DNA from: a virus
Lineage: Duplodnaviria > Heunggongvirae > Uroviricota > Caudoviricetes
Length of the DNA: 64,000 bases
Virus record (IMG/VR): IMGVR_UViG_3300045988_138358
Strand: one strand, 5' to 3'
A program made the translations under genes and the position numbers. Under the pieces are notes generated by a model. That model worked only from the letters and a program-made list of their open reading frames with translations. It had not been told where the DNA came from and did no database searches. This document shows, piece after piece, positions 38,954 through 63,279 of this stretch (the stretch's first letter is position 1; every line of letters starts with the position of its first letter).

Positions 38954-39040
38954 TGGCGGAGAGTAATGGAATCGAACCATCATCGCTTGCGCAATGGGAC
39001 GGTTTTCAAGACCGCTTGAGCACCATGCTCCCTACTCTCC
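38954..39040 (-). tRNA. class II tRNA, probably Ser (anticodon TGA), atypical D-arm
   Basis: 87 nt; 7-bp acceptor stem, anticodon loop CTTGAAA, long variable arm, T-arm GATGG-TTCGATT-CCATT, G73, CCA; D-arm does not fold canonically. Confidence 0.45.
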
Positions 39041-39185
39041 GGCCGTTGTGGTGGCCGGTACTGAATCTCCGGCATACGGTGCAGCCAATTAGGACTACGG
39101 ACGATCACCGCTCGCGAAAGGGAAGATTTGCGGCCGCATTTCCCTAACATCCAAGAAAGCTATCGCATCAGTCTGCGAATCCACC

Positions 39186-39277
39186 ACAACGTTGAGAACA
39201 CTGGTTGTCACGCTGCAACGCAACATTTATTCGTAGATTGGGATATGACCCCGTTACGTCAGTGTTCTCAACGTTGT
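39186..39277. repeat. perfect 18-bp inverted repeat with 56-nt loop
   Basis: ACAACGTTGAGAACACTG at 39186-39203 and its exact reverse complement at 39260-39277, in the non-coding tRNA region. Confidence 0.6.
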
Positions 39278-39420
39278 AGTACCGGTTACGGTTCCGGCCA
39301 GGCCTCTTCCTCAACGGGGTATTCTCCATACGGACTACCGTTTATTGGTCGTTCCTGCGGTTTATGTTGTGAAGCCAGATGCTTATCTTCTGGTTGCTTC
39401 AAAGAGCTGCACTTCATCAC

Positions 39421-39500
39421 AACGGTAAGGGTACTTCGTAGGGATTCGAACCCTCTGCCAAGCACGGCGATCTCCGACGTCGCAAAATACCCTTACCTGT
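39421..39500 (-). pseudogene. tRNA-like remnant
   Basis: GGGTTCGAATCCC T-arm-like element enclosed by a 10-bp helix (GGTAAGGGTA/TACCCTTACC); no canonical cloverleaf can be drawn. Confidence 0.25.
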
Positions 39501-39505
39501 TGTGT

Positions 39506-39581
39506 TGGTGCCGATTAACGGACTCGAACCGCTGACATCCTGCTTACAAGGCAGGCGCTCTACCAACTGAGCTAAACCGGC
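39506..39581 (-). tRNA. tRNA-Thr (anticodon TGT)
   Basis: Canonical cloverleaf, anticodon loop CTTGTAA, T-loop TTCGAGT, CCA encoded. Confidence 0.85.
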
Positions 39582-39583
39582 AT

Positions 39584-39660
39584 TGGCGATGGTGGGTGGA
39601 TTCGAACCACCGACCGACAGCTTAGAAGGCTGCTGCTCTATCCTACTGAGCTACACCATC
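39584..39660 (-). tRNA. tRNA-Arg (anticodon TCT)
   Basis: Canonical cloverleaf, anticodon loop CTTCTAA, T-loop TTCGAAT, CCA encoded; 2 nt from tRNA-Thr. Confidence 0.8.
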
Positions 39661-43364: not shown

Positions 43365-43625
43365 TTAAAGGTTTATTTTATCCGGTTCGGATATTTCTGT
43401 GATTGTCTTGTCGATTGCGATCAACCACCCTTCATAGGTTAAATCATCAACAAGCTCTACCAGTTTGTCTTCTGTATGAGGGAAGTATACCCAGCTCCAG
43501 CTCGCTGGGTTTTCTGCTTTTCGCAGCGTAAAAACCTTCTTGTAACGGTGAAACTCAAGGACATACCCCTTCGATATGGAATATTCCTTTAGGTCTTCGA
43601 CCGTAAACCTACGATTCTTTCGCAT
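43365..43625 (-). CDS. hypothetical protein
   Basis: 86-aa ORF. Confidence 0.4.
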   Translation of the reverse strand: MRKNRRFTVEDLKEYSISKGYVLEFHRYKKVFTLRKAENPASWSWVYFPHTEDKLVELVDDLTYEGWLIAIDKTITEISEPDKINL

Positions 43626-44062: not shown

Positions 44063-44098
44063 TCAAATTCGGCCCCGGTTGGGGCCGCTCCTTATCTG

Positions 44099-47000
44099 TT
44101 AGGCCGCATCGGCGATTATTTTACGCAGTTCATCTACCGAGTAACGCGTAGATACCATCCACGCCGGACGGTCAAAGTTCACATCAGCAACCGGGTTTGC
44201 TTCAAAATTCCAGAAACGCCCGCCAATCTTCTTAATCGCGTCTTTGGCGTTCCGTATTGTCGAGGAACCTGGCTGGTCGGCAATGAGATAAACCGCGCCA
44301 ACGTCTTCGCTGACGCTCCACCAGCGCCCGCGAACACGCGCCTTAGCGCGAATCGGCTTATCATTAACCACAATGATATAGTCATCATTCGCCGCTTCAT
44401 CAGCTCTGGCTTCAGCCACTGCCGCCTGCTCTTCTCTTTTGCTTTCAGCCTGCTCAAGCCTTTCCGCGATCTCTGATTCAGTGGCCCCGCCGTTTTTCAG
44501 CGATACATAGTCCTGCCACGTTGCCGATTTGAGCGCATCCGGCAACTCATTCACATAGTCGCCGTCTTTCAACTCACGGGCGCGACGGGTAGCCATTTCT
44601 ACCAGGCGATTAACAGAAACAGCATCAGCAAAATCGTCCTTACTAATGTGTTTTTCATCAAATGCATTGATGACAGCCCCCACCTTAATCCACTGTGCTG
44701 CTGGCGAATCCAGAGGATTATCGGCCTGAACAATGGCTAATTTCGCTCCATCGACACCATTATTAGCCAGCTGCTCCAATGCCGACCAGCCATCGGCATC
44801 GCTGAGTGATTTATATTGCTCAAACAATGCATCGCGCCAGGCCACCAGCGCAGCTCGTGTTTTCTCAATTTTCGCCGTAATTTTCGCGGCCTTCACCTGA
44901 TTAAACATCCGTTCAATGTCATCAGTGTTGCTAAAGGCTTTCATCCTGCCCTGGAATAAACGGTATGCCACCACGGTCTTCCAGAAAGATTCCAGCCCTT
45001 CTCCGGACGGTTTACGGAACAGGCTAAGAATATCTTCAGAAGTAACTTTATTAAGTGAGCGACCGGACAAACCACGCCCTGCCATCCAGTTTTCAAACTC
45101 CTGGGAAACATCATCCATCGTGGCCTGTGACCCCCATGCCTGCATTCCCTGGATGTAATCATATCCATACAATGCCTGGAGGAATCCCTCTCCGTCCACG
45201 ATATTCAGCGGGTTATCACTGGCTTGTATTTTTGCCACTTCACGCTTCAGCGCCTCATCGTTGCCATCAGGGTAAATCCACCGCTCAGGCGCTATATCCG
45301 ATGCTCGCCCGATTTTTTGACCTATTACGCCATCATAAGCCGATGACAGTGCAATCTGACCATCATCGGTGCGATAAGCCCAGTATTTAATAGCTGAACC
45401 ACCGCCCCATACTCTACCAGGCTTCCCGGCAGTGACATTCATTACCCCATTGCGAATAGCATCATAGAACTGATCGCGCGTAAGTGTTGTTGATAGCTGG
45501 TGGCATTGAACACCACGTGCAGCTGTTTCACGCGATTCTGCAACTCCCTCTTCAAAGGTTACCGATTCAATTATCAGGTTAAAGGGCAAAAATAATGCCG
45601 TCCCCGGAGAACGAGAGTAACGACTAGCCACATCCAGCCAGGATATGCGGCACGTACACCCGCCCCTTTCCGCATCAATGGCGGTAACACGAACAATTGC
45701 TGTCGTATTGTGATTCTCATCGATGATCGCGCGATAATGGCTGCCCTTGTGCAACAAGATATTTTTCTCAGTGCGTACATACTCCTGTGGGTTCTGCAAT
45801 ACATCGGCATCAAGCTCCAGAACCCCGGCTTTAATCGCACGTTCCAGATCACCACGAGAACGTTTCATAACGGTGTCAGCGTCTTTAGCTCTGGTGATCG
45901 CAAAGCGTAGCTCCCGCACACGTTTTCTGTAGTCTCGCAACTGTTCCAGAACATATTTCTGCCCGTTCCTGTTCGTCCCCGCTTTAATCAGGTCGTCAAC
46001 ATTGCGCTGGTAATGCTCTACCTGCTCCATCGCGCTTTTCAGTTCAGTCTCCATCATGCCGATATCTTTCCCGGCAGCATTCGCCGCTTTCAGGTAGTTA
46101 TCGAGAGCATTATTGGCTTCGCGTAGGGCTTTCAGTTTCAGACGTTCTTCACGCTCTTGCGCCTGACGACTCATGATTGCACGGCGTTCTTCCGGATTTG
46201 CCGCCAGCATAATGGCGCGTTCATCTGCGTCATCCGCATCACCATTGGCGATCTCTGACATGTCGGAGGTCATCACCATATTGATCCAGTCCTTCTTACG
46301 TTTCAGCGTATCCAGACGGAAGTCATCAAATGTGCCTTTGCCACAATAGTAGTGAACATTGACCTTTTCTTGTGGTGAGCCTACCCGAGCGCCGCGTCCA
46401 TTACGTTGGTCGATACTGGCAGGAGTCCAGGGTAGTGTCAGATGGTGGATATCGGTTGTCCCGATGTGCAAGTTAATACCTACTTCAGCCTTCTTGTTAC
46501 AGATTATGATGCGCGTGCGACCTTCGTTATAGTCGGCGGCAATACCTTCCATGCCCTCAAGGCCAGCATCATTTTTAGCTGAGAGATAATCCTCATATTG
46601 GGCAAGTTTGCTGTAGTAGGTTTCCCATGCACCTTCTTTGTATTCACCGTTTTTATTTGGCGTAGGTTCAGTCGGCTTATTCACCTTCTTCAGCTTGACG
46701 CCGCCAGCCTGGCTAACTGTCGTCGCATTGATAATGCCTATCTCCTGCTCCGGCATTTGCAGTGCACTGGCAATAATACGGCGCAGCTTCTGGTGCTGGG
46801 CTTTTTCATCAATGAAGACGATTTGTTTACCGTTCTTCAGACCTTCACGAAGGTTTTCGATCAGCGCGGCATACTTCGGCGGGATGGGGTGTGATACCTG
46901 CTGCATATCAATACCGGCAGCCGCAATGGCCTTCAGTATTTCAGCTTCCAGTTCAATGCCAGCACGTATTTCAACATGCGACGGATGTTCGCTAAAGGTG

Positions 47001-50000
47001 GTCTTCACTACCTTGCTGGTACGCGTACTGACCAGCCCACCAGCGCCATCTTCTTCGGCATCGTCTACATCATCTGCCACTTTACCGCCAGCTACTTTTG
47101 GCAGGGCATCAGCAATAGCTTTTACCTTGTCTGCAAGCTCAACGGGGAACTGGAATGTAATCGCACTGGCATACAGATCAGGATCTATAGCAACCTTATC
47201 CATGTCGCGGATGATGGAGAAGATGAAATCATCCGGTTTTTCGTTTGTGATATGCCCGTTTTCATCGACCGTCAGCGCATCTTTACTGCTTAACTCCTGT
47301 GCACGCTTACGAAGTTCTTCGTAAATGGCCTCTTGCTCTCCTGTCATCGGGATCTGCAAGGTATTCTCGACAATATCAGGGATTTTTACCGTCGCCCCGA
47401 CGTCAGCAGCAGTCTTCAGAGTAGTCCAGCGATGGAAAATACCACGCAGACCATCCAGGTTCTGGAAGCCCACCAGTCCCTGCTTCTCTTCCACCTCACC
47501 GGAAATTTTCTGAACCTGAACTGTGGCTGTTTTACCGAACACGCGAACGAAATCATCCGGCGTAACAATACCCATGCGCATCCACTCTTCCTGCGGAATG
47601 ACAGTAGACAGCATGTTGAAAGCATCAATCGGGCTGTTCACCAGCGGTGTTGCCGTCAGCATAACCACACCACGCCCGTTGTTGCGTTTCATCATGTACG
47701 CAGCTTTTACAGCCATGTCGCGGGCCATTTTGGATACTGCCGGGTTAGGCAAATATGCCAGTTGCCCCGCTTCGCGCCCGGCGCTAAAGGAGTTGCGGTA
47801 GTTATGCCCTTCGTCGGCAATTACGCTATCGAAGTTCATATCCTCAAAGTACGGGATATTCTGCTTCTTCGTTGTACCGGTATTTGCGGCCTGGTCCTTA
47901 ATCTTGTTCTTCTTCTGCGCGTCACGGTGTTTGCCAGATGCCAGGTCAAGACGCCCCATTTCCACAGCATTAAAGACCGCTTGCTGTGAGTTTTCCTCAA
48001 TGGTTTCTTCTCGTAGCGGGATAGACGCGAATTGCTCTTTTGTCATGATGACCGTTCGCCAATTTGACGACGGGATCATGTTCATGCGCTGAACGATAAC
48101 GGCGCTGGCGGACTCTTTCACAACATTTCTGGTAAGAGCCTGCCCGTTACTGTCGAGGCGTGGTTCGCCATTTTCATCAAGCACCGGCGCGGTCAGAATA
48201 TTTCCGCTGTCATCACGAACTTCATCCAAACCGATAAACATCATATTGGCGAAGGCATCAGCACTGTAGAAACTCTGTGCCTCGTGATACCAGTTCTGAT
48301 AAACCGCCTTCGGAACAACAATACACGTGCGTTTAGTGCGACCTGTTTCGAAGTTATACGCCTCAAGCGCAAGCGCGGTCGTGGTTTTACCCAGCCCGGT
48401 GCCAAATCCCATGATGCCGCGCCCATCTTCTGATAAGCGACGAACTTCTTCATTCTGATAAGTCAGAGGAATGCGCTTCCCACTAATCCCCTCCAGGCCA
48501 AGCGGTGCGTCAGAATGCGTAAACGGGATGAAGCCATTAAATGCGTCGTTATAGTCGCGGGCTATCTGATCAGCCTGCGGGTGAGTGCGTAACCAGTCGT
48601 TGAAGCTAATTTCCAGTTGAGCAATCTTATCCAGGTACTCGTTAGCGTTCTGCCCACGCGGTTTAATGCCGTTCAGGTAGTTTTCTAACTGGTTCAGGAA
48701 GCCGTCTTTATTGTTGGCCTTCTTGAACTCATTCCCGTTTTTGCCGTTTACGGTTCGTAGTTGATAGCCAGTAAATACCCCGTCCTTACCTTCGTAATCG
48801 TCCGGAGATACCAGAATGCCGTCCTCAACCTTAAGGTCGGGTTCTGTATACTTAAACTCGTCATAGCCTTGCTCTGCCAGGAACTCTTTTATCAAGCGGC
48901 GATCCAGCCAGCGGGCGTTCAGATTAACGGTGACTTTATTTAGTGGCGTGAAAATGCGTTTCTCTTCGATTTTCGCCAACTGACGCTCAAAGTTCGCTTT
49001 CTGCTCACCTGTTGACGCATCACGCCAGCCCACCAGCAATGCTGTTTTGGTTGCAATATCGCCGCTGGTGGCGCGGTCCATAGGCAGCAGGCAGCCATAC
49101 CCATCAATAGCGATATCATCAAATTTCGCCAGGTATTCCAGAGCAGCATCGTCGTCTCCTGGCAGTTCGCCAGCAAACGCCTCACGAAAATAGTCCAGTG
49201 TGATTGGATTAAGTGCCACGTCACTGAAAAGGTGGGTTACAACTTGTTCCGGGCGTGTAAAGTCAATACCGGCAGCACCATCCGTTACATCAAGTCGTCC
49301 AGCAAGGAGGTCAGAAGCAGAGCCGTCCTGTTTCACGTTGCCAGTGAAAGTCATCCAGTTTTTAGCGCCAGCTTCAGCAATCCCATTCAGCTTAATCGCG
49401 TGCGGCGGACCATACTTCGCAATTTCGGCTTCCGCCAGGCGCGCGGCATCAGCAAGTTCATCATCAACATTTTCCCCCAGATTACGCTTATCAAGCGCCT
49501 TGTTGATCAACTGCCCTATCAGTGCGCCGCGCATAACGCGTTCTCTGTCTTTTTCTCTCTGCTTGCCAGCAAAGCGAATCATTGCCGCTACTTCATCACT
49601 GATAACCGACGGATAGTCGGACGCGATCGCCGATATCTGGTCCCATGACAACGCCAGAATGCCATTTGTTGACTGAAACGCGATCTGCAGATCACCAAAC
49701 GTCGTAACACCATATCGATTTACATCAAGCGCGGAGGATTTGGTTGTCGCGTCCTTGACCCATTTCAGACCATCAAACTCATGCCAGATGCCGCCTACAA
49801 GGCGTTTATCGCCCACTTTCGCGCCCTGCCATGCCTGAGTAGTTACGCCAAGCAAATCCCAATTAATGCGGCTTTCAAAGCGGCGCGATAGAGCGGTTTT
49901 CATCGACTCATTGGATACACGACCGTCCTTTTTCACCACCAGGGTATTGCGGAAGCTGGTACGCTCCATATCGCCGTAAACAAATCGCTTCCCTTCGGTT

Positions 50001-50938
50001 GTAAACCATTTCCCTTTGAGGAAGGTATCCCAAAGGACGTTTGCCGACTTGAGCGTTGCATCATCCGTGTCGGGGATCATCTCCAGGAAGGTTTCCGGGT
50101 GTTTACGCAATACCCATACGTCCACCACTGTATCTGTACCGGATTCGCTGAACGTACCAGAAGGCATACGATGTGCGCCCAAAAATTCCGCTTTACGGCT
50201 GACTTTATCGCGCAATTTTTTGTATTTCGTACCATCGGTCATGCCATTCGGCACCACCAATACAATTAGTCCACCAGGCTTAACCTTGTCGATCGTGCGC
50301 AGCACAAAATAATTGCCAACGTTCTTCTCGTTTGCATATGCCGGATCAAGCCCGGCGACACCGGAACGCCCTTCGCCAAACGGTACGTTACCAACAGCAT
50401 GGTCATACATTGCGTCTTTCGCCGCCAGAGCTTCAAACGCCCCGATATTCACATCGTCTTCCGGGTGCAAAAGCTGGTTTATTCGACCGGAAATCGGAGA
50501 CAGTTCGGCGCTGGTCATTATCATGCCCTGCCGTTTTGTCTCCTGGAAAATACCTGTGCCCGCTGATGGTTCCAGTACGTGCCCACCATCAATACCGTAG
50601 TCAGCAAACAGATCCCATATACCTTCAGCCATAAACTGTGGCGTGTAGTATTCGTATTGGCTGCCCTCACCATCTGTCAGGCCACCTTCACCGGTATACC
50701 CGGCAAGAATCTGACGTTGTTCGTCAGTTAATTTCGCCCCATCGAAGCCGGGCGGAAGGGAATTAAGAAGATTTACTGCGGCATTGTTTGCTGCCCGGCG
50801 TGTTTTCTGAATACTGACGCCATCGGCTTTCCTGACGCCAAAGGTCGCAACAGCACGTAATTTATGCAACCGACTAACAATTTCAATCAGTTCGCCTAAG
50901 CTGGAGGCTTCACTGATTGAATGAAGTAGTTTGTCCAA
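44099..50938 (-). CDS. darB: giant methyltransferase-helicase, DarB-like anti-restriction protein
   Basis: 2279 aa; N-terminal methyltransferase-like region (GNVPFG), central helicase motifs (GFGTGLGKTTTA, VIADEGHNYRNS); size and domain order match P1 DarB. Confidence 0.75.
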   Translation of the reverse strand: MDKLLHSISEASSLGELIEIVSRLHKLRAVATFGVRKADGVSIQKTRRAANNAAVNLLNSLPPGFDGAKLTDEQRQILAGYTGEGGLTDGEGSQYEYYTPQFMAEGIWDLFADYGIDGGHVLEPSAGTGIFQETKRQGMIMTSAELSPISGRINQLLHPEDDVNIGAFEALAAKDAMYDHAVGNVPFGEGRSGVAGLDPAYANEKNVGNYFVLRTIDKVKPGGLIVLVVPNGMTDGTKYKKLRDKVSRKAEFLGAHRMPSGTFSESGTDTVVDVWVLRKHPETFLEMIPDTDDATLKSANVLWDTFLKGKWFTTEGKRFVYGDMERTSFRNTLVVKKDGRVSNESMKTALSRRFESRINWDLLGVTTQAWQGAKVGDKRLVGGIWHEFDGLKWVKDATTKSSALDVNRYGVTTFGDLQIAFQSTNGILALSWDQISAIASDYPSVISDEVAAMIRFAGKQREKDRERVMRGALIGQLINKALDKRNLGENVDDELADAARLAEAEIAKYGPPHAIKLNGIAEAGAKNWMTFTGNVKQDGSASDLLAGRLDVTDGAAGIDFTRPEQVVTHLFSDVALNPITLDYFREAFAGELPGDDDAALEYLAKFDDIAIDGYGCLLPMDRATSGDIATKTALLVGWRDASTGEQKANFERQLAKIEEKRIFTPLNKVTVNLNARWLDRRLIKEFLAEQGYDEFKYTEPDLKVEDGILVSPDDYEGKDGVFTGYQLRTVNGKNGNEFKKANNKDGFLNQLENYLNGIKPRGQNANEYLDKIAQLEISFNDWLRTHPQADQIARDYNDAFNGFIPFTHSDAPLGLEGISGKRIPLTYQNEEVRRLSEDGRGIMGFGTGLGKTTTALALEAYNFETGRTKRTCIVVPKAVYQNWYHEAQSFYSADAFANMMFIGLDEVRDDSGNILTAPVLDENGEPRLDSNGQALTRNVVKESASAVIVQRMNMIPSSNWRTVIMTKEQFASIPLREETIEENSQQAVFNAVEMGRLDLASGKHRDAQKKNKIKDQAANTGTTKKQNIPYFEDMNFDSVIADEGHNYRNSFSAGREAGQLAYLPNPAVSKMARDMAVKAAYMMKRNNGRGVVMLTATPLVNSPIDAFNMLSTVIPQEEWMRMGIVTPDDFVRVFGKTATVQVQKISGEVEEKQGLVGFQNLDGLRGIFHRWTTLKTAADVGATVKIPDIVENTLQIPMTGEQEAIYEELRKRAQELSSKDALTVDENGHITNEKPDDFIFSIIRDMDKVAIDPDLYASAITFQFPVELADKVKAIADALPKVAGGKVADDVDDAEEDGAGGLVSTRTSKVVKTTFSEHPSHVEIRAGIELEAEILKAIAAAGIDMQQVSHPIPPKYAALIENLREGLKNGKQIVFIDEKAQHQKLRRIIASALQMPEQEIGIINATTVSQAGGVKLKKVNKPTEPTPNKNGEYKEGAWETYYSKLAQYEDYLSAKNDAGLEGMEGIAADYNEGRTRIIICNKKAEVGINLHIGTTDIHHLTLPWTPASIDQRNGRGARVGSPQEKVNVHYYCGKGTFDDFRLDTLKRKKDWINMVMTSDMSEIANGDADDADERAIMLAANPEERRAIMSRQAQEREERLKLKALREANNALDNYLKAANAAGKDIGMMETELKSAMEQVEHYQRNVDDLIKAGTNRNGQKYVLEQLRDYRKRVRELRFAITRAKDADTVMKRSRGDLERAIKAGVLELDADVLQNPQEYVRTEKNILLHKGSHYRAIIDENHNTTAIVRVTAIDAERGGCTCRISWLDVASRYSRSPGTALFLPFNLIIESVTFEEGVAESRETAARGVQCHQLSTTLTRDQFYDAIRNGVMNVTAGKPGRVWGGGSAIKYWAYRTDDGQIALSSAYDGVIGQKIGRASDIAPERWIYPDGNDEALKREVAKIQASDNPLNIVDGEGFLQALYGYDYIQGMQAWGSQATMDDVSQEFENWMAGRGLSGRSLNKVTSEDILSLFRKPSGEGLESFWKTVVAYRLFQGRMKAFSNTDDIERMFNQVKAAKITAKIEKTRAALVAWRDALFEQYKSLSDADGWSALEQLANNGVDGAKLAIVQADNPLDSPAAQWIKVGAVINAFDEKHISKDDFADAVSVNRLVEMATRRARELKDGDYVNELPDALKSATWQDYVSLKNGGATESEIAERLEQAESKREEQAAVAEARADEAANDDYIIVVNDKPIRAKARVRGRWWSVSEDVGAVYLIADQPGSSTIRNAKDAIKKIGGRFWNFEANPVADVNFDRPAWMVSTRYSVDELRKIIADAA

Positions 50939-51089: not shown

Positions 51090-51575
51090 ATGGCAAATAT
51101 TGAACCTCGCTGGCTAATTGAAGCCCGTAAGCACATTGGCCTGACTGAAATAAAAGGCGCTAAACACAACCCTGAAATCGTTCAGTTCTGGCGCGACATC
51201 AAGCGCGGCGGAATTAAAGACGATGAAACGCCGTGGTGCGCAGCATTTGTCGGTGCAATGCTGGAACGTGTAGGCATCCACTCAACAAGATTTGAGTCGG
51301 CAAAATCCTATCTGGATTGGGGCGAGAAATTAGATACACCGGCATACGGATGTATCGTTGTATTTACCCGCGTAGGCGGTGGGCACGTAGGCTTCGTTGT
51401 CGGACGCCGTGCCAATGGCGATCTGCTTGTCCTGGGTGGGAACCAGGGGGATGCGGTTAATATTCGCGCATTCCCAACATCAAGAGTGTCTGGCTATCGC
51501 TGGCCTGCTGGCGAACCACGCAATACCGCTCTGTTACCAGTCGGAGACGCAGCAACCTCAACTAATGAGGCATGA
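51090..51575 (+). CDS. NlpC/P60-CHAP-like peptidoglycan hydrolase (putative)
   Basis: Candidate Cys (ETPWCAAFVGA) and His (GGGHVGFVVG) catalytic segments. Confidence 0.55.
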   Translation: MANIEPRWLIEARKHIGLTEIKGAKHNPEIVQFWRDIKRGGIKDDETPWCAAFVGAMLERVGIHSTRFESAKSYLDWGEKLDTPAYGCIVVFTRVGGGHVGFVVGRRANGDLLVLGGNQGDAVNIRAFPTSRVSGYRWPAGEPRNTALLPVGDAATSTNEA

Positions 51576-51804
51576 AAAAAGCCCCGGCCTGGCCGGGGCA
51601 TCACGCTTCAAGTCACGATCCAATCATTACCGACTATATCAGCCGTCGATAAATCAACTTCCCGGATCTGGAGTCCATTAATACAAAACCATCCGGTAGT
51701 AGAGTAATTATCAGGCCAGGCCCATACACCAACACTCCATGCTTTACGGCGGCACACTTCAGCCTGTTCTTCCCTGATTTTTTTTACCGCCTGCATGATG
51801 TCCA

Positions 51805-54313: not shown

Positions 54314-55312
54314 TTATCCCCGTCGCGAAACGAAGAGTAATGGGGTAGTATTTTTGCTCTCCTTCGGCGATAACTCCGGCTCTTTCTTGCCTGATATCGG
54401 CAAGCCATAAGTCGCATTTGCCCCCAGAGATTCAAGCATCGCAGCCACTATGCGAGCATCATCTTCAGACTGCATACGGCAGAGCGCCCGACGCTGTTCT
54501 GCGCTGATAAAAACAGGCAGCTCCTGGATAGCATCACGCAAAATCCTACGGCATTTCTTCGCATCTTCGCCCTGGCTTTCCATCATTGCGGCCTGGTTGC
54601 GTAATTTGTCGCGAAGTTGCATATTTTCCACTTCAAGGAGCATCAATTCTGACTCAAGGGCTTCACGCTGTGCTGACTCGAAAATAGCCTGCTGATTCTT
54701 CATTGCTGAAAAGTGGTGAACAAGATCCGTAGCCGCGTTATCGGTAAAACCTTGTTCGATAAGTGCCGCATGAATAGCCGCGTCGCGCTCTTCTGCTGAT
54801 TCAAGCATCAGGCTTTTCTTGTCGAGGCTGATATAGTTAGGAACAGTTACGTAATCAAAGCCGTGGAAAGACTTTACCAGGGATACCGATGAATCTGGAC
54901 CAGATGTAGCCCACGACCAACCACCAGCACCAGAGTTAATCATGCCCTGAACAATACGCCCGGTGTCTGTATCCAGTATTTCCTGCGTATGAGTAACAAT
55001 GCCGTTGTCGTCAATCGAAATGTCGATAGTCCTGTTTGACGGCACGTTCTCCAATACAACAGGCTTCCCATCTACCATCACAACAGAGACTTCCGGCAAG
55101 TTCAGGCTTTTCGTTTTGTTATAGTGCATCGCCCGGCGACCATGACCGTAATAACCATACATCTCACCCAGCGCGATACGCTCTTTTGTTTCTGGCGAGT
55201 TGAATGTGTCTCGTACCGACTGAATGACGTAATTTCGGTTGTTCTGCGGTGTGTGTTTGCGGATTTTCTCTACCAGGGAGAAGCGATCCGTAACAGTATT
55301 CAGTGATTGCAT
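54314..55312 (-). CDS. head morphogenesis protein (protease or scaffold, tentative)
   Basis: 332 aa with C-terminal coiled coil, immediately after the putative portal gene. Confidence 0.3.
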   Translation of the reverse strand: MQSLNTVTDRFSLVEKIRKHTPQNNRNYVIQSVRDTFNSPETKERIALGEMYGYYGHGRRAMHYNKTKSLNLPEVSVVMVDGKPVVLENVPSNRTIDISIDDNGIVTHTQEILDTDTGRIVQGMINSGAGGWSWATSGPDSSVSLVKSFHGFDYVTVPNYISLDKKSLMLESAEERDAAIHAALIEQGFTDNAATDLVHHFSAMKNQQAIFESAQREALESELMLLEVENMQLRDKLRNQAAMMESQGEDAKKCRRILRDAIQELPVFISAEQRRALCRMQSEDDARIVAAMLESLGANATYGLPISGKKEPELSPKESKNTTPLLFVSRRG

Positions 55313-55325
55313 TATTTCCCTCCGG

Positions 55326-57008
55326 TTAATTGCTCATCACAAATTTTGCAAAGTTTATTAACTGTTCTGGCGTCCAGTTTTCCGGATCGTCACCGGACGA
55401 CAACGGCGCGGATTCGTACATACCATGCTCGTTGTTTTGCTCTGATTCATTCGCCTTAAACTCTTTGATCATGGTGTTGAGAGTGTCATCGTCGATGTGC
55501 AACTGCTCAGTGAACAGATAACGCATAAACGCGTCGCTACCAGCCAGTTTCGGGTTGTTCTGGATCTGGTCCATAATTTGGGAGATGACAGCAACAAAGT
55601 TGGCGCGTGCATCCAGTTCTCGGTTTTCCTCTTCCTGGATAGCAGTGTTCATTGAGTTGAATTGCACGTCATAAGGGCGGTTTGTTTCGGTGTAAACCTT
55701 GCCGTATTTATAAGCGAGGTGAATGTCCAGAAGCCGATAAATAGTTCGCTGGGCGGCCTGTCTGATCCAGTTCGCACGCAATGCAGCCTGGATAGCAGTT
55801 TGCTGCCAGCCGCCTTCTCCAAGCCCTCCGCTCATCTGATCAGCCCAGCCAAGCATTGTTGCGTCAATGCCGAGGCTTGCAGCAAGCTGCCGGAGGTGAA
55901 ACATAACGTCTTCGATACCACTGATATCTGCGGGTATGGATTGCGTATCAATGGTGATGCCGTTCTTCCCGTCTCCCATAACAGGTATCAGATGGTTAAG
56001 CACAGTCGGAATAGCGTTGGCATTAATCGACCTTTGCGCCACCAGGTCACTATGACGCTTCAATGCCTGGCTGACGCCACGCGTATAGTTCGCCGCATTA
56101 ACCGGGTCCAGTGTGTTCGTCGTAAGAGCAATCAGGCGGTCAATTTTGGCTGCATTATTTCGCGTTGATTTCAGCGCGGCGAGCGAAGCACATAAATTAA
56201 GGTAAGGTTCATAGCTGTATTCCAGGAATGAAGTTCCGTAATTCTGCGTCTCCATTAACGGCTTATCAGCCTGATCACTTAACAGTGAATACCCTTTTGT
56301 ACCGTAGCTAACCGGAATAACCTTATGCTGCGGCGTCCAATACGGGTTTTTCATGGAAACAAGATTCCACGGTTCGGTTATTACCCTGCGCAAACTATGC
56401 GTATCCAGAATGTAATCACCACTGAAACCGACCAGCTGGCTACCGCGATAAAATTCCTGGACGAAGTGTGGAAGAGTGTAATAACTGGATTCAATGCCAG
56501 TTATCCCTCTGCCCTGTTCAGCATAAGGTCGGACATAAGACACCCCAAAGATCGCCATAATCATGGCCCATGAAGGAAGTCCGTCATTAATCATTGCCCC
56601 CAAATCAGCTGTTAACTCTTCACACCTACTTACCGCCTCGGCATCGGAACCATCTTTTGGCGAAAGCATGAATGCCAGCCCGGTTTTCTTTGAAGGCGCA
56701 AGCGCATGTGCAATATGAATGTTTAAAGCCGTTGAGATAGTCGGGCTTTTAGCCATCGTTTCCAGGATGTTGTACTTTTGCAGGCGCTCGCCGGGCAGTT
56801 CAGCGGATAAAGAAATTGAATCTGCTGCACTCGTCATGCCATCGCTGTTGCCACCCAGGATGCCTGGACGTAAAGCGGACAGGCCGGAACGAGCAACGAC
56901 ACTATGCCCGCTCGTAAAAACGACCGGATCGGCGGGCGTAACATCACCACCGTTGAAGGCTTTCTTCAATGCCGACAGAAAGCCTTTGTTTTTGTCTTTC
57001 GTTGCCAT
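55326..57008 (-). CDS. portal-like protein (putative)
   Basis: 560-aa protein preceding the head gene; assigned by size and position only. Confidence 0.35.
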   Translation of the reverse strand: MATKDKNKGFLSALKKAFNGGDVTPADPVVFTSGHSVVARSGLSALRPGILGGNSDGMTSAADSISLSAELPGERLQKYNILETMAKSPTISTALNIHIAHALAPSKKTGLAFMLSPKDGSDAEAVSRCEELTADLGAMINDGLPSWAMIMAIFGVSYVRPYAEQGRGITGIESSYYTLPHFVQEFYRGSQLVGFSGDYILDTHSLRRVITEPWNLVSMKNPYWTPQHKVIPVSYGTKGYSLLSDQADKPLMETQNYGTSFLEYSYEPYLNLCASLAALKSTRNNAAKIDRLIALTTNTLDPVNAANYTRGVSQALKRHSDLVAQRSINANAIPTVLNHLIPVMGDGKNGITIDTQSIPADISGIEDVMFHLRQLAASLGIDATMLGWADQMSGGLGEGGWQQTAIQAALRANWIRQAAQRTIYRLLDIHLAYKYGKVYTETNRPYDVQFNSMNTAIQEEENRELDARANFVAVISQIMDQIQNNPKLAGSDAFMRYLFTEQLHIDDDTLNTMIKEFKANESEQNNEHGMYESAPLSSGDDPENWTPEQLINFAKFVMSN

Positions 57009-57092
57009 GAATCACCGCGAATTGTTTCCAGTTTCGCGGCAGCATAATCAGTATGTGATTTGATAGGAGAGTTTTATTGGTGCTGTTAATGA

Positions 57093-57425
57093 TTACTTAC
57101 ACGCTTCCCTGCCCACATAGTCAGCGATGGAACCACTTACAATCCCCACCATTTTGGGATCAGGTTTTGAATTTTTCATCTGTTCAAGCGTCTCCCCAGA
57201 ACCAAGATACTTCACTTCATTTGTCATGCAATTATATATTCTCTTCGAATATGCTGTCCCAGATGGGCCTTCCCTTTTTGTAATGATAGTTTTATATTCA
57301 CCTTCACGACCAATATCCAGCACTGTATAAGTAGCTTTTGGATCAGAAGGGATTTTTATCTTATAGGGCGCAGCACAAACTGATGCAGAAGCTAATAAAG
57401 CACAAACCAGGATTATATTTCTCAT
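57093..57425 (-). CDS. small secreted protein, low GC
   Basis: Signal peptide MRNIILVCALLASASVCA. Confidence 0.45.
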   Translation of the reverse strand: MRNIILVCALLASASVCAAPYKIKIPSDPKATYTVLDIGREGEYKTIITKREGPSGTAYSKRIYNCMTNEVKYLGSGETLEQMKNSKPDPKMVGIVSGSIADYVGREACK

Positions 57426-57469
57426 AACTATACTCCATGTTATAAATTATCAAAGCTAAGTAAGTAAAA

Positions 57470-58027
57470 CTAATCTGGATCAACAATAAGTTGTGAAACC
57501 TTCGCTGCAAGTCTTATATAGCGTTCAGCTTCATTTCTGGTGATTTCAAAATCCAGAAAGTGCGCGGCTTCATTTCTTAGCGAGCGAAGCCGTTTTAACA
57601 GCAAAGCAGCGGAATCTTCAAGTTTTCCTTCTTGAATCAACCAGTCAATGAATAGTTCTGGATTCCGTTTCGGCTTTAACCCTCCCTGTATAAAACCAGA
57701 GCGCCCGGCAGCCTCCTCTACCATCAACCATGACTCCATAATAGCAGCTCTAGGTGAAAAATCAGCAATTCTCTCTAATTGTGCGATTTTATTTATATAT
57801 TCAGAGTTATTATTACCATTGTTAATATTTTTATTCCCAACTGATGCATCTGTTGCTAATACTTCTGCTGCGGTTAGTCCCGCATTAAACTCAGCTTCAG
57901 CTGCTCCAATCTTGAATCTACTCAGACGTACTATTAACTCCTTAATATCAACCCCATACTTATTAACAAACCACACAAACACCAATGGCCATGCAAGAGC
58001 TGAAACCAAATCTGTAAATGATGACAT
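57470..58027 (-). CDS. HEPN-motif protein with N-terminal transmembrane helix, low GC
   Basis: 185 aa; hydrophobic helix LVSALAWPLVFVWFV then R-x4-H motif (LRSLRNEAAHF) near the C-terminus. Confidence 0.55.
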   Translation of the reverse strand: MSSFTDLVSALAWPLVFVWFVNKYGVDIKELIVRLSRFKIGAAEAEFNAGLTAAEVLATDASVGNKNINNGNNNSEYINKIAQLERIADFSPRAAIMESWLMVEEAAGRSGFIQGGLKPKRNPELFIDWLIQEGKLEDSAALLLKRLRSLRNEAAHFLDFEITRNEAERYIRLAAKVSQLIVDPD

Positions 58028-58152
58028 CGGTTATCCTCATTCATTATATTCTCAGCTAGTTTACATATTATTAAACAGGAACAAAAATGAATTATGCGCC
58101 CATCTTCAGATATGTTATGAACGCACAGAAAGAGCATTAAGTTACATTGATG

Positions 58153-59517
58153 TTACCCAACAGAGGTTGACTCAAACATAGAAAAAATTAACCCTTTACC
58201 TTCGCCAAACTCAGTCTCAATTTCATCAGAAACGGCAGATAAAATGCTACGCAGATCGACATCTCCGCCGCCGAACATATCGCCTAACGCTTGTTGCTGG
58301 TGAATAAGCTCATCGTTAATTTTTTGCGCCAGTTTCTTGAAAGCAGCCCCCATACGCTTAGCGCTTCTGTTGTTGGCAACAATAAACAGAGCAAGCGCTT
58401 CCGCTTCCGGAGTGCTATCTCCAAACAATCCGCGCTGTGCGATCACCTCTTCTACTGCCTGACCGTTATCTTTTGCTTCACGAACAAGGTTAATTGCTTC
58501 CTGTAGCGCGGCAATAGCCTGTTTATCCAGCCCATTCAATTGCTCTATGCCGTCTACTAGTCCGGTTACCGTGTCATGGTGAACATCGCCTGAAAGTGAC
58601 TGCATTTGCGCAAAATCGCTGGCTGCCGTATTTAATGCGGTAAGGATGTTACGCATTTCCGGATCTGGCTCTTCCGCCACCAGCCGGACAAGCCTTTCAT
58701 CCTTGTACGCTTTGGCAAAAATTGCATTCTGGATGCGGTCGATAAGTTGTTTCGTTGGACGCCCATCGGCAGTAAGCAAACCTGCCGTCGCCGTATCACC
58801 TATTTCGCGCAGAAACGCACGAATAAACGCATCATTGGACCGCGCCAGTAGATTCCCATCATCTGAAGGATTAAATAGCGCCATGACGCTCTCAGTGAGA
58901 AATTGCGCATCCGCATACGCTTTTTCACTTGCAGCCATCTCTTGCAGATCGCTGATGTTTGAATCGCGGGCAAATTGTGCGCGGTCTACATCTGTGAGTC
59001 TTTCGCGCACCAATACGGGCATAGACATTTGTGAAATGTCGTCAGGATTCAGACCAAACTCTTTTGCATGATCGATCAGGTACTGGCGATATTCATCCGC
59101 CTGCCCTTGCTCATAGGCACGCCAGATACCCATGCTCCTTCCGTTGCCGGATTCAACAACGTTGTCCGGACCAACTATCGGCGCTCCGTGGCTGCTCATG
59201 CCGGAATCCGTTAATTGTGCCGGGCGTAAATTGGAGGCAATACGGTTAACCTGGAGTTTGCTGGATAGCCGTGTACGGTCACGTGGCTGGAGTTCTTCCG
59301 GGAAGGCCGGATTAATCGTACCGTCAAGGTTGTTCGAAATGATCAGGCTGCTGGCATCAACGACCTTAAAAGCCGTCTTTACCTCTGCCCCTTTACTGGT
59401 GACTACGTAACTACTGCGCCCCTGGCGTGTTTCTCGCCTCTCTAATGAAGAAACCAGCGCAATAACACTGTTAATGTCTGCTGCTTCGGATATCGCGGAA
59501 GTAACTGACTTGTTCAA
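58153..59517 (-). CDS. hypothetical protein, possibly virion-associated
   Basis: 454-aa ORF in the darA-like operon. Confidence 0.45.
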   Translation of the reverse strand: MNKSVTSAISEAADINSVIALVSSLERRETRQGRSSYVVTSKGAEVKTAFKVVDASSLIISNNLDGTINPAFPEELQPRDRTRLSSKLQVNRIASNLRPAQLTDSGMSSHGAPIVGPDNVVESGNGRSMGIWRAYEQGQADEYRQYLIDHAKEFGLNPDDISQMSMPVLVRERLTDVDRAQFARDSNISDLQEMAASEKAYADAQFLTESVMALFNPSDDGNLLARSNDAFIRAFLREIGDTATAGLLTADGRPTKQLIDRIQNAIFAKAYKDERLVRLVAEEPDPEMRNILTALNTAASDFAQMQSLSGDVHHDTVTGLVDGIEQLNGLDKQAIAALQEAINLVREAKDNGQAVEEVIAQRGLFGDSTPEAEALALFIVANNRSAKRMGAAFKKLAQKINDELIHQQQALGDMFGGGDVDLRSILSAVSDEIETEFGEGKGLIFSMFESTSVG

Positions 59518-59610: not shown

Positions 59611-59979
59611 TTACCCTGCATAACCGTTGGCTTTCACCCAGCTTATGGTCTGCTCTTTAGCCTGTTCCAACGTAAGGAACTCGCCTACATAGTTTGAGAT
59701 CCCACGTAGCGCATCAATAAATTCCATTTGCGTGGACTTTGTGAATGCACCTCCAAGGAAGTCTGTCACTATCTTAGGAATGTCACCTGCAACAGTATCT
59801 GGCTGCGCCTGCGGGTCCGATACTGATTGGGCCGCAGCCCCAAGCCCCAGTTTAAGCATCACATCAACAATCTGCTTACCAATTGAGACGCGTTGCAATA
59901 CTGGCGCGGTTTTCTGCGCCTGCATTAGATCTGATAGCTCTTTACCTAATTTCAGGCGTTCTAAAACAGAGATAGCCAT
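59611..59979 (-). CDS. hypothetical protein
   Basis: 122-aa ORF. Confidence 0.4.
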   Translation of the reverse strand: MAISVLERLKLGKELSDLMQAQKTAPVLQRVSIGKQIVDVMLKLGLGAAAQSVSDPQAQPDTVAGDIPKIVTDFLGGAFTKSTQMEFIDALRGISNYVGEFLTLEQAKEQTISWVKANGYAG

Positions 59980-61910
59980 TAAGCACCTCCCTGCTGAATT
60001 TCAGCCAGAATATTGATCAGGTAGTCAACGGCTGCACCTACAGTTGCTTCGTTCTCGTCATATCGACCAGCACTGATTAGAGCGTTTGCTGCTTCCTGCA
60101 CATGATCAAGTTCAGCACTGATGACCGTCAGATCGCGGGATGTAAACTGCTTCGGCACGGATTTCAGGTACTCCAGCGCTTTATCTGCCTCCTGATCAGC
60201 TTCACTTGCTGATTCACCAGCTTCTTCTGGCTCCGGCTCCTGTTCTGGTGCTGGTTGTGGTTGTGATTCCGGCTCAACCACATGCTCTGTTTTTACTTCG
60301 CTTGAATGATTTTGAAGGGCGTTATACACGTCCATAATGAAAAGGTTCTCCCCATCACCAAGTGGATACGCCACGTTTGGAAACGCTTTGCGGAAAAGAA
60401 TTTTCACTTGCGCCTTGAATGTTTTCAGGTCACTGCCAAACAGGTCTACATAGCCATCAATATGTTTCGACATGCTGGACACAACCAATTGGCCTGCAAA
60501 ATCTTTCAGCTCATCTTCATCAGGAAGATAGAGCAACTCGTACTGGCTGACTTCTTCATCTGTCAGTTTACGGTCATACGTAATGATACCGTGACGAGCA
60601 TATTCGTAATACTGATCAGCCTGGTCAGGACGATCAAGCACGGCTTTATTTCCATCCGGCACAGCACCAACACCAGCCGGGCGAGATTGAAGTGCATAGT
60701 GGTATTTACCTACATCTTGGCTCTCTGGTTGTGATACTGGGTTCGTCTCGGGGTCTGTCTGTGGTGGTTCGGAGTCTTCCTGCTGGCCTGGTAACACATC
60801 AACTTTATATTTATCTGCGTTATGCTCTCGGTAGGCTTTAAGTAATTTGGTTGCAGCATCTGCCAAACTGCCTCCTTTGACAGCACTGGCATCAATACTG
60901 AATTTACCTTCAGGTGCTACTATCGTAACGAAATTGTCACTGCCGGACGTGACATAATTAACTTCAGCGCCATTATCCAGCACTGTTTTTCCGTCAATGG
61001 CAAGATTATGTTTTACATGTCGCAGCTGGTCACTAAACGCTCGTTCTTTCGTTTTTTCACCTTTAGCAGACAACAATTTATCGCGTTTTGCTTGTAATTC
61101 CTCGTTGATGGCTTTCTGGGCATCAAGTTTTTTTTGCATCTCCGTAAGAGCAGCACGCTTTTCAGTCAGCCCACGTTGTGCAACGTCCACCTGATCAATC
61201 ATTATTGACCGTTCTTCTGCCAGTTTATCTGCCTCATTGAGATAACTCTCAATATCTGCCTTCATTTTGTCCTGGCGCTCTTTTGCTTTCTTAAATTTTT
61301 CGCTGTTACGCTCAATCAAATTAGATAGCGCCTGGCATACCTGGCTTAAAGAAACATCTCTCCCACCAATCGGGGCGACAACGTGAGTTACGTTACGCTT
61401 ATTAAGTAAAAACTGAAATGCAACAAGCTCGTCGTTACTCTTTATTTTTGCCCCGTCAGCTGTTGGAGAGTGGAAAATTATGCTTGTACTCTGCCCGTCA
61501 GTAAGCGGTATCTGCGCGGTCAAAACAGGGATATTAGCTACCCGACGCACACGACCGATAATCGCACCACCAATACAATTACGTCCATTTTCATCGGTCC
61601 CGGCTTCATCAGTCCCTGCCATAATATTCGTACCATTCAGGCCACGATTCAGCGCACGGACGAAAGCTCGCATTGTTTGAGCTAACCGAATTCTGGTTGT
61701 AGTTATGGACTCAAACATAGCTTCGTCAGACACAACCAGTATTTCATTGCCCATATAGGCAAGCTCAATATCTTCTAAGGTCGCCGCCTCAAAAATCAGG
61801 TCATCTTCGCTTAATTCTTCTGAAGACCAGCGACTTGGCACATAGCCGGGGATCGTATCAGCAAAAGTAGACTGAATATTAATTCGTAAAGGATTGTTAA
61901 TCATGCTCAT
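59979..61910 (-). CDS. DarA-like virion protein (tentative)
   Basis: About 640 aa with central coiled coil and acidic tail, placed after lydA/lydB-like genes as darA is in P1; start at internal Met. Confidence 0.35.
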   Translation of the reverse strand: MSMINNPLRINIQSTFADTIPGYVPSRWSSEELSEDDLIFEAATLEDIELAYMGNEILVVSDEAMFESITTTRIRLAQTMRAFVRALNRGLNGTNIMAGTDEAGTDENGRNCIGGAIIGRVRRVANIPVLTAQIPLTDGQSTSIIFHSPTADGAKIKSNDELVAFQFLLNKRNVTHVVAPIGGRDVSLSQVCQALSNLIERNSEKFKKAKERQDKMKADIESYLNEADKLAEERSIMIDQVDVAQRGLTEKRAALTEMQKKLDAQKAINEELQAKRDKLLSAKGEKTKERAFSDQLRHVKHNLAIDGKTVLDNGAEVNYVTSGSDNFVTIVAPEGKFSIDASAVKGGSLADAATKLLKAYREHNADKYKVDVLPGQQEDSEPPQTDPETNPVSQPESQDVGKYHYALQSRPAGVGAVPDGNKAVLDRPDQADQYYEYARHGIITYDRKLTDEEVSQYELLYLPDEDELKDFAGQLVVSSMSKHIDGYVDLFGSDLKTFKAQVKILFRKAFPNVAYPLGDGENLFIMDVYNALQNHSSEVKTEHVVEPESQPQPAPEQEPEPEEAGESASEADQEADKALEYLKSVPKQFTSRDLTVISAELDHVQEAANALISAGRYDENEATVGAAVDYLINILAEIQQGGA

Positions 61911-62532
61911 CCTCCAGGCGCGCGATTTCTTCTTTAAGAGCACGTGTCTTAGCTACTTCCTGAGACAAGGCAGCTTTAACGTTACCCGTATCTTGCATTA
62001 CTTTGTCTGACTTGCTCTGGAGTTTAGACAGTTTGTCGTTAGCATTAGCGATATCTTCACGGAGTGCATCACGTGATTCTTTCGCTTCAGCTAATTTCTG
62101 AGCGTTAGATTTAACTCCCTGCCGCTTCTTATTTCCGTCATCAATATTTTTTGCTGCACGAGCAAGTTTTCGAGCTAATGACTTCTGGAAAGAAGTTGCT
62201 CCGCGATTAAATAAAGCCGCAAGAGATTGCCCCAAAGCCGACATTGTTTTTACTGGCTTGAACGGTACTGTTTTACCATTCAGTTTGATCCCAGATATAT
62301 CACCGGTATCGTTAACCTGAACTTCCATTGTCTGTTCATCAATACCAATAAGGGTAAACGTGCGCGTCATGATCCCATCTTTCTTCCTGCCATTACTTGC
62401 AGGGATCACCCTCGCTATCTTGTAACCACCTTTGCTGATTTCTTTGACGAGTTTTGCCAGCCCCTTTTCGTTTAACTCATCATAATTAAGAAGAACATAA
62501 TTATTCTTATTTGACATCCCAGTCTCCTTCAC
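61897..62532 (-). CDS. hypothetical basic coiled-coil protein
   Basis: 211-aa ORF between the lydB-like and darA-like genes. Confidence 0.4.
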   Translation of the reverse strand: MKETGMSNKNNYVLLNYDELNEKGLAKLVKEISKGGYKIARVIPASNGRKKDGIMTRTFTLIGIDEQTMEVQVNDTGDISGIKLNGKTVPFKPVKTMSALGQSLAALFNRGATSFQKSLARKLARAAKNIDDGNKKRQGVKSNAQKLAEAKESRDALREDIANANDKLSKLQSKSDKVMQDTGNVKAALSQEVAKTRALKEEIARLEDEHD

Positions 62533-62953
62533 GCTTTTCGATCGTAAACTGGCGCTCTATGCAGTCATTGATAGGGAAAATGCGATAAAGCGGATTCAGT
62601 CGACAGTTACCGTTAGTCAATGTGACTTTCAGATCCCACTTCGTTGGCTCAAGATATTTCGTATCGATGAGCAAATACTCTTCTCTCTCACCGCGTTTTG
62701 AGGCGTCAACTGGTCGCGTTTTCCCTGAAATAACCACAGATGGATTTTTCAGGTCTTGCAACCAATATTCGATTTGAGCATTGCTGACCCAGCTTCGCTT
62801 AACACGTAGCGAAACAGGAAATGCTATAGCGGATTCTTTCACTACAGCGTCACCAATACTCAAAATCTCAACACTCTTGCGACGAAAAATGAAACGGTCA
62901 ATGATGGCAACAAATGCCATGATAAAAATGAAATAATTTCCAAAGTTACCCAT
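62507..62953 (-). CDS. LydB-like protein (tentative)
   Basis: 148 aa with N-terminal hydrophobic helix, directly after the holin-like gene; P1 LydB is of similar size. Confidence 0.35.
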   Translation of the reverse strand: MGNFGNYFIFIMAFVAIIDRFIFRRKSVEILSIGDAVVKESAIAFPVSLRVKRSWVSNAQIEYWLQDLKNPSVVISGKTRPVDASKRGEREEYLLIDTKYLEPTKWDLKVTLTNGNCRLNPLYRIFPINDCIERQFTIEKREGDWDVK

Positions 62954-63279
62954 TATTTCTCTCCACCTTTTCCCCCATTCGCTATTACGCTTAAGAGATT
63001 CAAGACGTTACTAGCTCTGGACTTCAAGCCCTGTAAAATTTCACTACCGTTGTTACTGGCAATCAGAACAACGCAGAAAATGATACCTTCAGGCCATTCT
63101 TGGCTAACCGCCACCCCATACCCCGCAAGCCCGGCTGTTACCGCAGTAAACAATTCACTCGCAAGATTGAGCAGGGACGCAGAAATGCGCCCGTCTCTAA
63201 CTCCGAGAAGGAATACGCCGGTTCCACTTAGTAGGGATGTTATGACTACTACAGCCAGATTTTCATAATCTGCAAACAT
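62953..63279 (-). CDS. holin-like membrane protein (LydA-like)
   Basis: 108 aa with three predicted transmembrane helices; first gene of the operon. Confidence 0.45.
   Translation of the reverse strand: MFADYENLAVVVITSLLSGTGVFLLGVRDGRISASLLNLASELFTAVTAGLAGYGVAVSQEWPEGIIFCVVLIASNNGSEILQGLKSRASNVLNLLSVIANGGKGGEK

Follow-up and report, generated by a model that had tools for sequence, protein, structure and literature searches.

The DNA analysed here (64,000 nucleotides of the IMG/VR virus record IMGVR_UViG_3300045988_138358; hereafter, the window) carries homologues of the genes that make up the Dar (defence against restriction) system of phage P1, arranged in two separate loci, both on the minus strand. 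The first locus comprises darB, an open reading frame (ORF) of 2279 codons, and the adjacent ulx gene; the second is an operon with the order lydA-lydB-hdf-darA-ddrA-ddrB (58153-63279), which is followed by a low-GC cassette and by the genes for the portal and the prohead protease (Table 1).

A first-pass annotation of this DNA, made from the letters alone, had proposed a DarB-like methyltransferase-helicase of 2279 amino acids (aa) at 44099-50938, an operon of holin-like, LydB-like and large-protein genes at 58153-63279 resembling P1 lydA-lydB-darA, and a low-GC HEPN cargo between the darA-like genes and the portal gene. All three proposals were borne out: the ORF is present on the minus strand, the operon has the P1 gene order, and a cassette of 38.5% GC encoding a HEPN-like protein lies at the position named. 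Alignment to P1 DarB and DarA, which the annotation had suggested as a check, gave 39.8% identity over the full length of DarB (residues 1-2279 versus 1-2255, E = 0) and 39.4% over 620 aa of DarA (E 4e-141) when the P1 reference region was compared by BLASTP against every window ORF. The hdf, ddrA, ddrB and ulx homologues, which that annotation did not mention, were also found.

Table 1 Features of the two Dar loci and of the adjoining genes in the window
Feature	Coordinates	Strand	Properties
darB homologue	44099..50938	-	2279 codons, TTG start; LPD36-like N-terminus, N6-adenine methyltransferase, SNF2-type helicase, lineage-specific C-terminal third
DarB residues 1-90	50669..50938	-	Equivalent of the P1 capsid-targeting sequence (first 30 aa) plus LPD36-like region; GxGU motif GEGG 83-86
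DarB methyltransferase domain, aa 91-283	50090..50668	-	YYTP 97-100, LEPSAGTG 122-129, GNVPFG 183-188
DarB SNF2-type helicase/translocase module, aa 823-1560	46259..48472	-	Walker A GTGLGKTT 846-853, DEGH 1042-1045, motif VI QRNGRGAR 1511-1518
DarB C-terminal third, aa 1561-2279	44102..46258	-	Divergent patch aa 1651-1800 (45539-45988); motifs YPDGNDEALK 1889-1898, PAWMVS 2258-2263
ulx homologue, 144 aa	43628..44062	-	36 nucleotides downstream of darB; 47.8% to P1 Ulx, 93.8% to D6 orf14; PHROG 1629 'Ulx-like anti-restriction' E 5e-59
lydA holin homologue, first gene of the operon	62953..63279	-	100% to D6 orf30, 43% to P1 LydA; PHROG 1527 holin E 8e-39
lydB (holin antagonist) homologue	62507..62953	-	Pfam LydB E 1e-24; 34% to P1 LydB
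hdf homologue	61897..62517	-	39.6% to P1 Hdf; Pfam DarA_N E 8e-18; PDB 9ukm_H (Hdf) E 2e-25
darA homologue	59979..61904	-	NCBIfam NF052326 anti_RE_DarA 1154 bits versus cutoff 350; Pfam DarA_N, DarA_C; PDB 9ukm_I E 7e-124
ddrA homologue, 122 aa	59611..59979	-	33.9% to P1 DdrA; PHROG 1855 'DdrA-like anti-restriction protein' E 2e-47
Short ddrB, 454 aa, N-terminal ParB-like half only	58153..59517	-	64% to P1 DdrB residues 2-446 of 995; Pfam ddrB-ParB E 2e-42
Accessory low-GC cassette at the ddrB-portal junction	57062..58171	-	GC 0.385; boundaries set against cassette-less NZ_CP047013.1
Transmembrane (WP) DUF4145/HEPN-like protein, 185 aa	57470-58027	-	N-terminal hydrophobic helix with AWP, C-terminal helical region
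Small protein, predicted to be secreted	57093-57425	-	Signal peptide
Portal gene prt	55326-57008	-	50% to P1 Prt
Prohead protease gene pro	54314-55312	-	43% to P1 Pro

Lineage of the window and prevalence of darB

The darB region (44099-50938) matches Escherichia phage D6 at 92.9% nucleotide identity and the region 57000-64000 at 97% (megablast). In the whole-window comparison, the window and D6 are colinear from 55973, across the circular junction, to 32199, and, as judged from its sequence, the window therefore belongs to an E. coli plasmid prophage that is D6-like and related to P1. The GenBank and RefSeq records of D6 (attributed to Gilcrease and Casjens 2018, as cited in PMC9024508) label the orthologues as similar to P1 darB, ulx, ddrB, ddrA, darA, hdf, lydB and lydA, the GenBank annotation of orf15 reading "similar to P1 gene darB"; the Dar system described here is already known and already annotated in the D6 lineage. 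Of 5426 complete E. coli genomes, 93 (~1.7%) have a match that covers at least 80% of darB. Alleles closer than that of D6 (99.3-99.8%) reside on other E. coli plasmids, some of which are devoid of the low-GC cassette (e.g., NZ_CP069884.1 and CP058777.1), and identities of up to 99.8% were seen on non-mobilizable plasmids of ~90 kb.

Organization of the darA operon and of the ulx region

Behind lydA-lydB, the reading frames of hdf, darA, ddrA and ddrB overlap or abut. The hdf ORF spans 61897-62532, with the likely ATG start at 62517 (ORF residue 6), and the darA ORF spans 59979-61943, with the likely ATG at 61904, which gives an overlap of 8 nucleotides with the hdf stop codon. The PDB chains matched by the products of these two genes, 9ukm_I and 9ukm_H, are P1 DarA and Hdf solved in situ in 2026. 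DarA and its P1 counterpart are 59% identical in the equivalent of the hexon-binding domain, the identity of their propeptides being 23%, and DdrB is the best conserved of the Dar proteins with respect to P1 (64%). PHROGs names Ulx-, DdrA- and Hdf-like anti-restriction families for the window products. The location of prt-pro (54314..57008) directly downstream of the darA operon provides a context for head incorporation and for DarA processing; in P1, Pro cleaves DarA (PMC12810830).

The first-pass annotation had compared this operon with the late operon of P1; no P1-type late promoter was detected, and 'late' is a putative designation taken from synteny. The sequences of LPdar, LPpro and LPlyz were taken from the P1 record, and the box was scanned for with and without the -10 element. 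Upstream of lydA and of darB, the scan found no late promoter of the Lpa-dependent kind (a AAGTGACTT-type box with a -10 element); of the P1 promoters, it recovered LPpro and LPlyz, which served as positive controls, but not LPdar (box AAGTTACTT), which in P1 precedes lydA. A single 9-mer, AACTGACTA, is located at 63316-63324 and has no -10 element. Neither the box scans of the window nor a scan for the palindrome ACTAAGTTAGT, which is present upstream of lydA, gave anything above chance, and the sigma-70 and terminator scans were likewise at chance level.

Two intergenic spacers contain hairpins. The ddrA-ddrB spacer (59518-59610; 93 nucleotides versus 12 in P1) can form a strong hairpin, AAAGGGGC-TGAAAT-GCCCCTTT, which could be an attenuator or an internal terminator setting ddrB apart from the upstream genes. 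In the darB-ulx spacer (44063-44098), the GC hairpin GGCCCC-AACC-GGGGCC separates an AAGGAG from the start codon (ATG) of ulx; as a Shine-Dalgarno sequence, AAGGAG would be ~27 nucleotides from this start codon unless the hairpin folds and brings the two together.

Domain structure and conservation of DarB

An ORF of 2279 codons is too long to be a chance product in 64 kb. Its TTG start codon is preceded at 7 nucleotides by a GAGGGGG ribosome-binding site, and D6 annotates the same start. The protein is 95.2% identical to D6 orf15 (BLASTP) and matches PHROG 1685 across its full length. The Pfam families N6_Mtase (20.2-21.7 bits versus a cutoff of 20.4), SNF2-rel_dom (E 1e-13) and Helicase_C were matched, the latter two together with ResIII in the helicase module, and the best solved relative is a weak, marginal PDB match to the type I methyltransferase subunit 7eew_A. 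No family matches were obtained for the ORFs of up to 228 aa that run antisense within darB, darA and ddrB.

In the three-way alignment of the window, D6 and P1 proteins, GEGG (residues 83-86) and all of the methyltransferase and helicase motifs are kept. The TP motif YYTP, motif I LEPSAGTG and the motif IV variant GNVPFG are identical or near-identical in P1 DarB, helicase motifs I, II and VI are identical in the window and P1 proteins, and identity to P1 reaches 50-75% in the motif cores. The GxGU motif has been described previously (PMC5512222), and the DarB-type dyad of methylase and SNF2 is defined by the GxGU, TP and NPP(Y/F)-type motifs in combination with an SNF2 ATPase (Iyer et al. 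2017, PMC5512222).

A methyltransferase-helicase of this size might instead be a lysogen-side defence or modification enzyme (DISARM DrmD/methyltransferase, BREX-like or type ISP-like) and not a virion protein. Such an assignment would agree with the weak matches of the helicase C-lobe to the DrmD, ZorD, DpdE and BrxH models, with those to models of type II methyltransferases in the N-terminal part, with the undetected late promoter and with the PGAP label, which is merely 'SNF2-related protein'. However, the scores of the defence models are far under their thresholds (e.g., 43.5 bits for DrmD versus a cutoff of 610), and the nuclease domain and partner genes of DISARM/BREX/ISP-type systems are absent. 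Moreover, the colinearity with P1 DarB spans the entire protein, darB is followed by ulx, as in P1, and the packaging partners are encoded nearby; we consider a lysogen-side enzyme very improbable.

The ratio of nonsynonymous to synonymous divergence (dN/dS, omega) of darB with respect to D6 is 0.09 over all 2279 codons, and the gene is under strong purifying selection. Positive selection was considered and rejected: omega is 0.03-0.14 everywhere, and in the divergent patch synonymous divergence (dS) is saturated.

A probable Dar system of the P1 type

Because of the homology, the gene order, the intact catalytic motifs and the purifying selection, we consider the two loci to be the P1-type Dar system of a D6-like E. 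coli plasmid prophage, working as it does in P1, with a probability of approximately 85%. Six virion proteins, loaded stepwise, and a capsid-targeting sequence of DarB have been described in P1 (PMC9024508); 55 DarA-Hdf pairs cover the inner capsid surface and are lost on DNA ejection (PMC12810830); the Dar proteins act in cis only and cover type I systems and BREX (PMC12707154); and a methylase-translocase model has been put forward for DarB (PMC5512222). Virion packaging, ejection and the anti-restriction effect would, by homology to P1, be expected in the D6 lineage as well. During head assembly, Hdf and DarA would bind to the inner capsid surface, the Pro protease would remove the N-terminal propeptide of DarA, and the procapsid would then take up DdrA, the short DdrB and Ulx, with the 2279-aa DarB coming last. 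On infection, the Dar proteins would exit the head with the DNA and act solely in cis on that DNA. DarB, combining an N6-adenine methyltransferase with an SNF2 translocase, would most likely load on the entering DNA and, driven by ATP, modify or shield it in such a way that type I complexes of the EcoK/EcoB families could not cut, and the DarA branch would cover other systems (EcoA and StySA/BREX in P1).

Several observations weigh against this assignment. Apart from the undetected late promoter, the two ends of DarB are poorly conserved: the last 700 residues are 15-26% identical to P1, and 8 of the first 30 residues are shared with P1 DarB, in which these 30 residues suffice for capsid targeting (PMC9024508). 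The residues critical for that function are 6-10 (PMC9024508), MGVFR in P1 and HSISE in the window protein; the targeting signal may have co-evolved with its packaging partners. DdrB lacks the entire C-terminal half that bears the metallopeptidase in P1 (454 versus 995 aa). Even for P1, the mode of action of DarB has been described as undefined, and some of the evidence obtained with darB on plasmids has been traced to Chi and EcoKI sites and was thus artefactual (PMC11109961). Our literature search found no experiments on virion delivery of, or type I protection by, D6-type Dar proteins.

The short DdrB and the little-conserved DarB start would suit decaying relics that no longer function in the D6 lineage. 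The C-terminal half of P1 DdrB has been interpreted as a zincin-like metallopeptidase with a presumed role in DdrB processing (Iyer et al., PMC5512222), and no remnant of it was found anywhere in the window; the tblastn alignment with P1 DdrB runs 27 codons past the stop with almost no identities. However, in D6-like plasmids that carry no cassette, ddrB is ~461 aa long and is followed by the portal gene 64 nucleotides later, so the short DdrB is the norm of this lineage, with or without the cassette, and it is the very protein that is best conserved versus P1; its N-terminal ParB-like half is the conserved part of the protein and is probably sufficient. The dN/dS of 0.09 across 2279 codons, the intact catalytic motifs, the retention of full-length darB (at least 80% coverage) in the 93 E. 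coli genomes and the probable co-evolution of the packaging signal with its partners likewise speak against decay, which we would give very little credence.

Sites for the enzymes that a P1-type Dar system would counter are present in the window: 5 EcoKI sites were counted versus 8.8 expected and 15 EcoBI sites versus 11.5 expected, values that indicate no avoidance and are close to expectation, so that the genome would need protection. The EcoAI sequence (GAGN7GTCA) occurs once in 64 kb (6479-6492) versus 5.8 sites expected, and there may be mild avoidance of EcoA-family sites. Chi sites (GCTGGTGG) number 53 in the window versus 1.5 expected. P1 is known as Chi-rich, and the D6 lineage shares this trait. 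Six of the sites are located in darB (44318, 44842, 45496, 47037, 49030 and 49064), a density of 0.88 per kb versus ~0.83 per kb in the whole window. That the anti-restriction linked to darB is restriction alleviation at the DNA level, by Chi and type I sites and not by the protein, is hardly credible here: on a plasmid, even P1 darB interrupted by a premature stop codon did relieve restriction by EcoKI, via Chi and EcoKI sites (PMC11109961), and the window darB has its six Chi sites, but Chi is equally dense window-wide and hence not specific to darB, the artefact concerns multicopy plasmids, and it is the DarB protein sequence that is under purifying selection.

The Dar-system assignment itself has little weight as a discovery, as virion-delivered anti-restriction by Dar proteins is a textbook example and the D6 homologues are annotated. 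The fast and mosaic evolution of the capsid-targeting signal and of the C-terminal third of DarB is a modest comparative point. Work on how DarB acts could be guided by the ParB half of DdrB, by the rapid evolution of the DarB termini and by the cargo hotspot downstream of ddrB (discussed below).

The C-terminal third of DarB

No Pfam match was obtained for the C-terminal third of DarB even at E<=1. An exhaustive HMMER search with this part detected 35 clusters among 1.84 billion representatives, all of them DarB-like; the longest are DarB-sized (about 2190-2316 aa), and the remainder are shorter proteins or fragments. A word-indexed homologue search with the same query returned near-identical fragments only. 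The AlphaFold2 (AF2) model built from 9 sequences (with a pLDDT, the score of the predicted local distance difference test, of 73) comprises a long coiled coil, a small beta-barrel, a helical region and an alpha/beta C-terminal domain. Foldseek found nothing in the PDB at E<=0.001 for this model, and a Tudor/BAH/KOW-like similarity of the beta-barrel (~60-90 residues) was not interpreted.

Within this part, the patch of residues 1651-1800 has a dS of 1.35 and an omega of 0.14 with respect to D6. Since dS is saturated, the comparison of the two sequences indicates a recombination mosaic in this patch and not diversifying selection. As the C-terminal third is without a known domain, is confined to DarB-like proteins and their fragments and holds a patch swapped by recombination, one might speculate that it is a specificity module choosing the restriction or BREX-type systems that are countered and exchanged by recombination among D6-like phage-plasmids, which, together with the peptidase-less DdrB, would give D6 an anti-defence spectrum unlike that of P1. 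We regard this proposal as unlikely.

The low-GC cassette between ddrB and the portal gene

The cassette downstream of the darA operon is ~1.1 kb long, with a GC content of 0.385 at 57093-58140 versus about 0.48-0.50 in the flanks, and it replaces the last few codons of ddrB. The HEPN-like product has a single N-terminal transmembrane helix (LVSALAWPLVFVWFV) with AWP from residue 12 (WP at 13-14) and an Rx4H motif, RNEAAH, at residues 151-156; a membrane HEPN subgroup with a transmembrane helix and WP was described by Anantharaman et al. 2013 (PMC3710099). The match to Pfam DUF4145 covers 82 of 88 profile positions and is sub-threshold (20.0 bits versus a gathering cutoff of 23.1, E 7e-4); in RefSeq, the D6 orthologue nevertheless bears the name DUF4145 domain-containing protein. 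The AF2 model made from the single sequence is helical throughout, with a pLDDT of 49.7 that is too poor for a fold search, and neither cassette protein matched the PADLOC or NCBIfam models.

With presence defined as at least 80% coverage of the query 56400-59000, the cassette was found in 14 of the 120 D6-like plasmids that matched this query. In most of the sampled D6-like plasmids, ddrB abuts prt and the junction is empty (e.g., NZ_CP047013.1, 2330-2380), and in one plasmid (NZ_CP069647.1, 1979-2623) a HicA-family toxin gene and an adjacent ORF occupy the same place. The ddrB-portal junction looks like an insertion hotspot for cargo of benefit to the lysogen. The DUF4145 RNase RAZR has recently been reported to be activated by phage portal rings (PMC13017515), and the location of a DUF4145/HEPN-like gene beside the phage's own portal gene recalls this activation; it is probably a coincidence.

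Neighbouring genes and other features of the window

An 86-aa ORF (43365-43625, minus strand), which starts 2 nucleotides after ulx, occupies the position of P1 lxc (C1 co-repressor modulator); it has no detectable similarity to Lxc, and its sole match is the uncharacterised PHROG 6844. Divergent from darB, where P1 has prt-pro, is a lysozyme-like gene (51090-51575, plus strand) that matches the C-terminal part of a PHROG 'baseplate hub subunit and tail lysozyme' family (E 1e-46), and a strong bidirectional terminator-like hairpin follows it at 51581-51599.

The glnS gene annotated in D6 (glutaminyl-tRNA synthetase) is absent from the window (3681-3819 versus D6 59654-61627). Other blocks of the window that have no D6 counterpart are located at about 14281-15405 and 22268-28544 and include a 461-aa ORF (27433-28818, minus strand). 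ARAGORN predicted four minus-strand tRNA genes at 38466-39660 (Met-CAT, Ser-TGA, Thr-TGT and Arg-TCT); the D6 record has three tRNAs on the plus strand, the last of them called Asn, a difference in strand and identity that may stem from annotation.

Comparison with known systems

The closest known system is that of D6 itself (MF356679 / NC_050154), in which orf14-orf15 are ulx and darB and orf23-orf30 constitute the cassette and the darA operon region, the low-GC cassette being present as orf23/orf24. The gene order is identical throughout, and protein identities are 87-100%. At the same time, D6 and the window diverge in a mosaic manner: at 45218-46217, 81-84% of the nucleotides are identical, and the protein identity of DarB drops to 73-80% around residues 1653-1840, where dS is 1.35.

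The HEPN-like protein of the cassette has a WP-bearing N-terminal transmembrane helix and Rx4H in common with the membrane-associated DUF4145-type HEPN proteins (PMC3710099). It differs from RAZR, which has a zinc-finger domain (PMC13017515), in having the transmembrane helix instead of a zinc finger. The polyvalent methylase-SNF2 proteins of phages and conjugative elements (PMC5512222) share with the window DarB an LPD36-like N-terminus, an EcoKI/TaqI-like adenine methyltransferase and an SNF2 ATPase; unlike them, the window DarB has a C-terminal extension of ~720 aa that is confined to DarB-like proteins and their fragments.

With respect to P1, the differences lie in the capsid-targeting residues of DarB, in the DdrB protein, which is full-length with a metallopeptidase half in P1 and short in the window, and in the position of prt-pro, which follow the darA operon in the window, whereas in P1 they are divergent and adjoin darB; no homologues of lydC, hxr and lxc were found in the window. 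The identity of the Dar and Lyd proteins to those of P1 is 34-64%. The DarB architecture and catalytic motifs and the DarA_N domain common to DarA and Hdf are as in P1, and so is the divergent location of cin upstream of lydA, with a Cin protein 98% identical to that of P1 (BLASTP). As in P1, darB-ulx form a locus separate from the operon, the operon itself runs lydA-lydB-hdf-darA-ddrA-ddrB, and all six components of the P1 Dar system (DarB, Ulx, Hdf, DarA, DdrA and DdrB) are present in the window in the P1 order.

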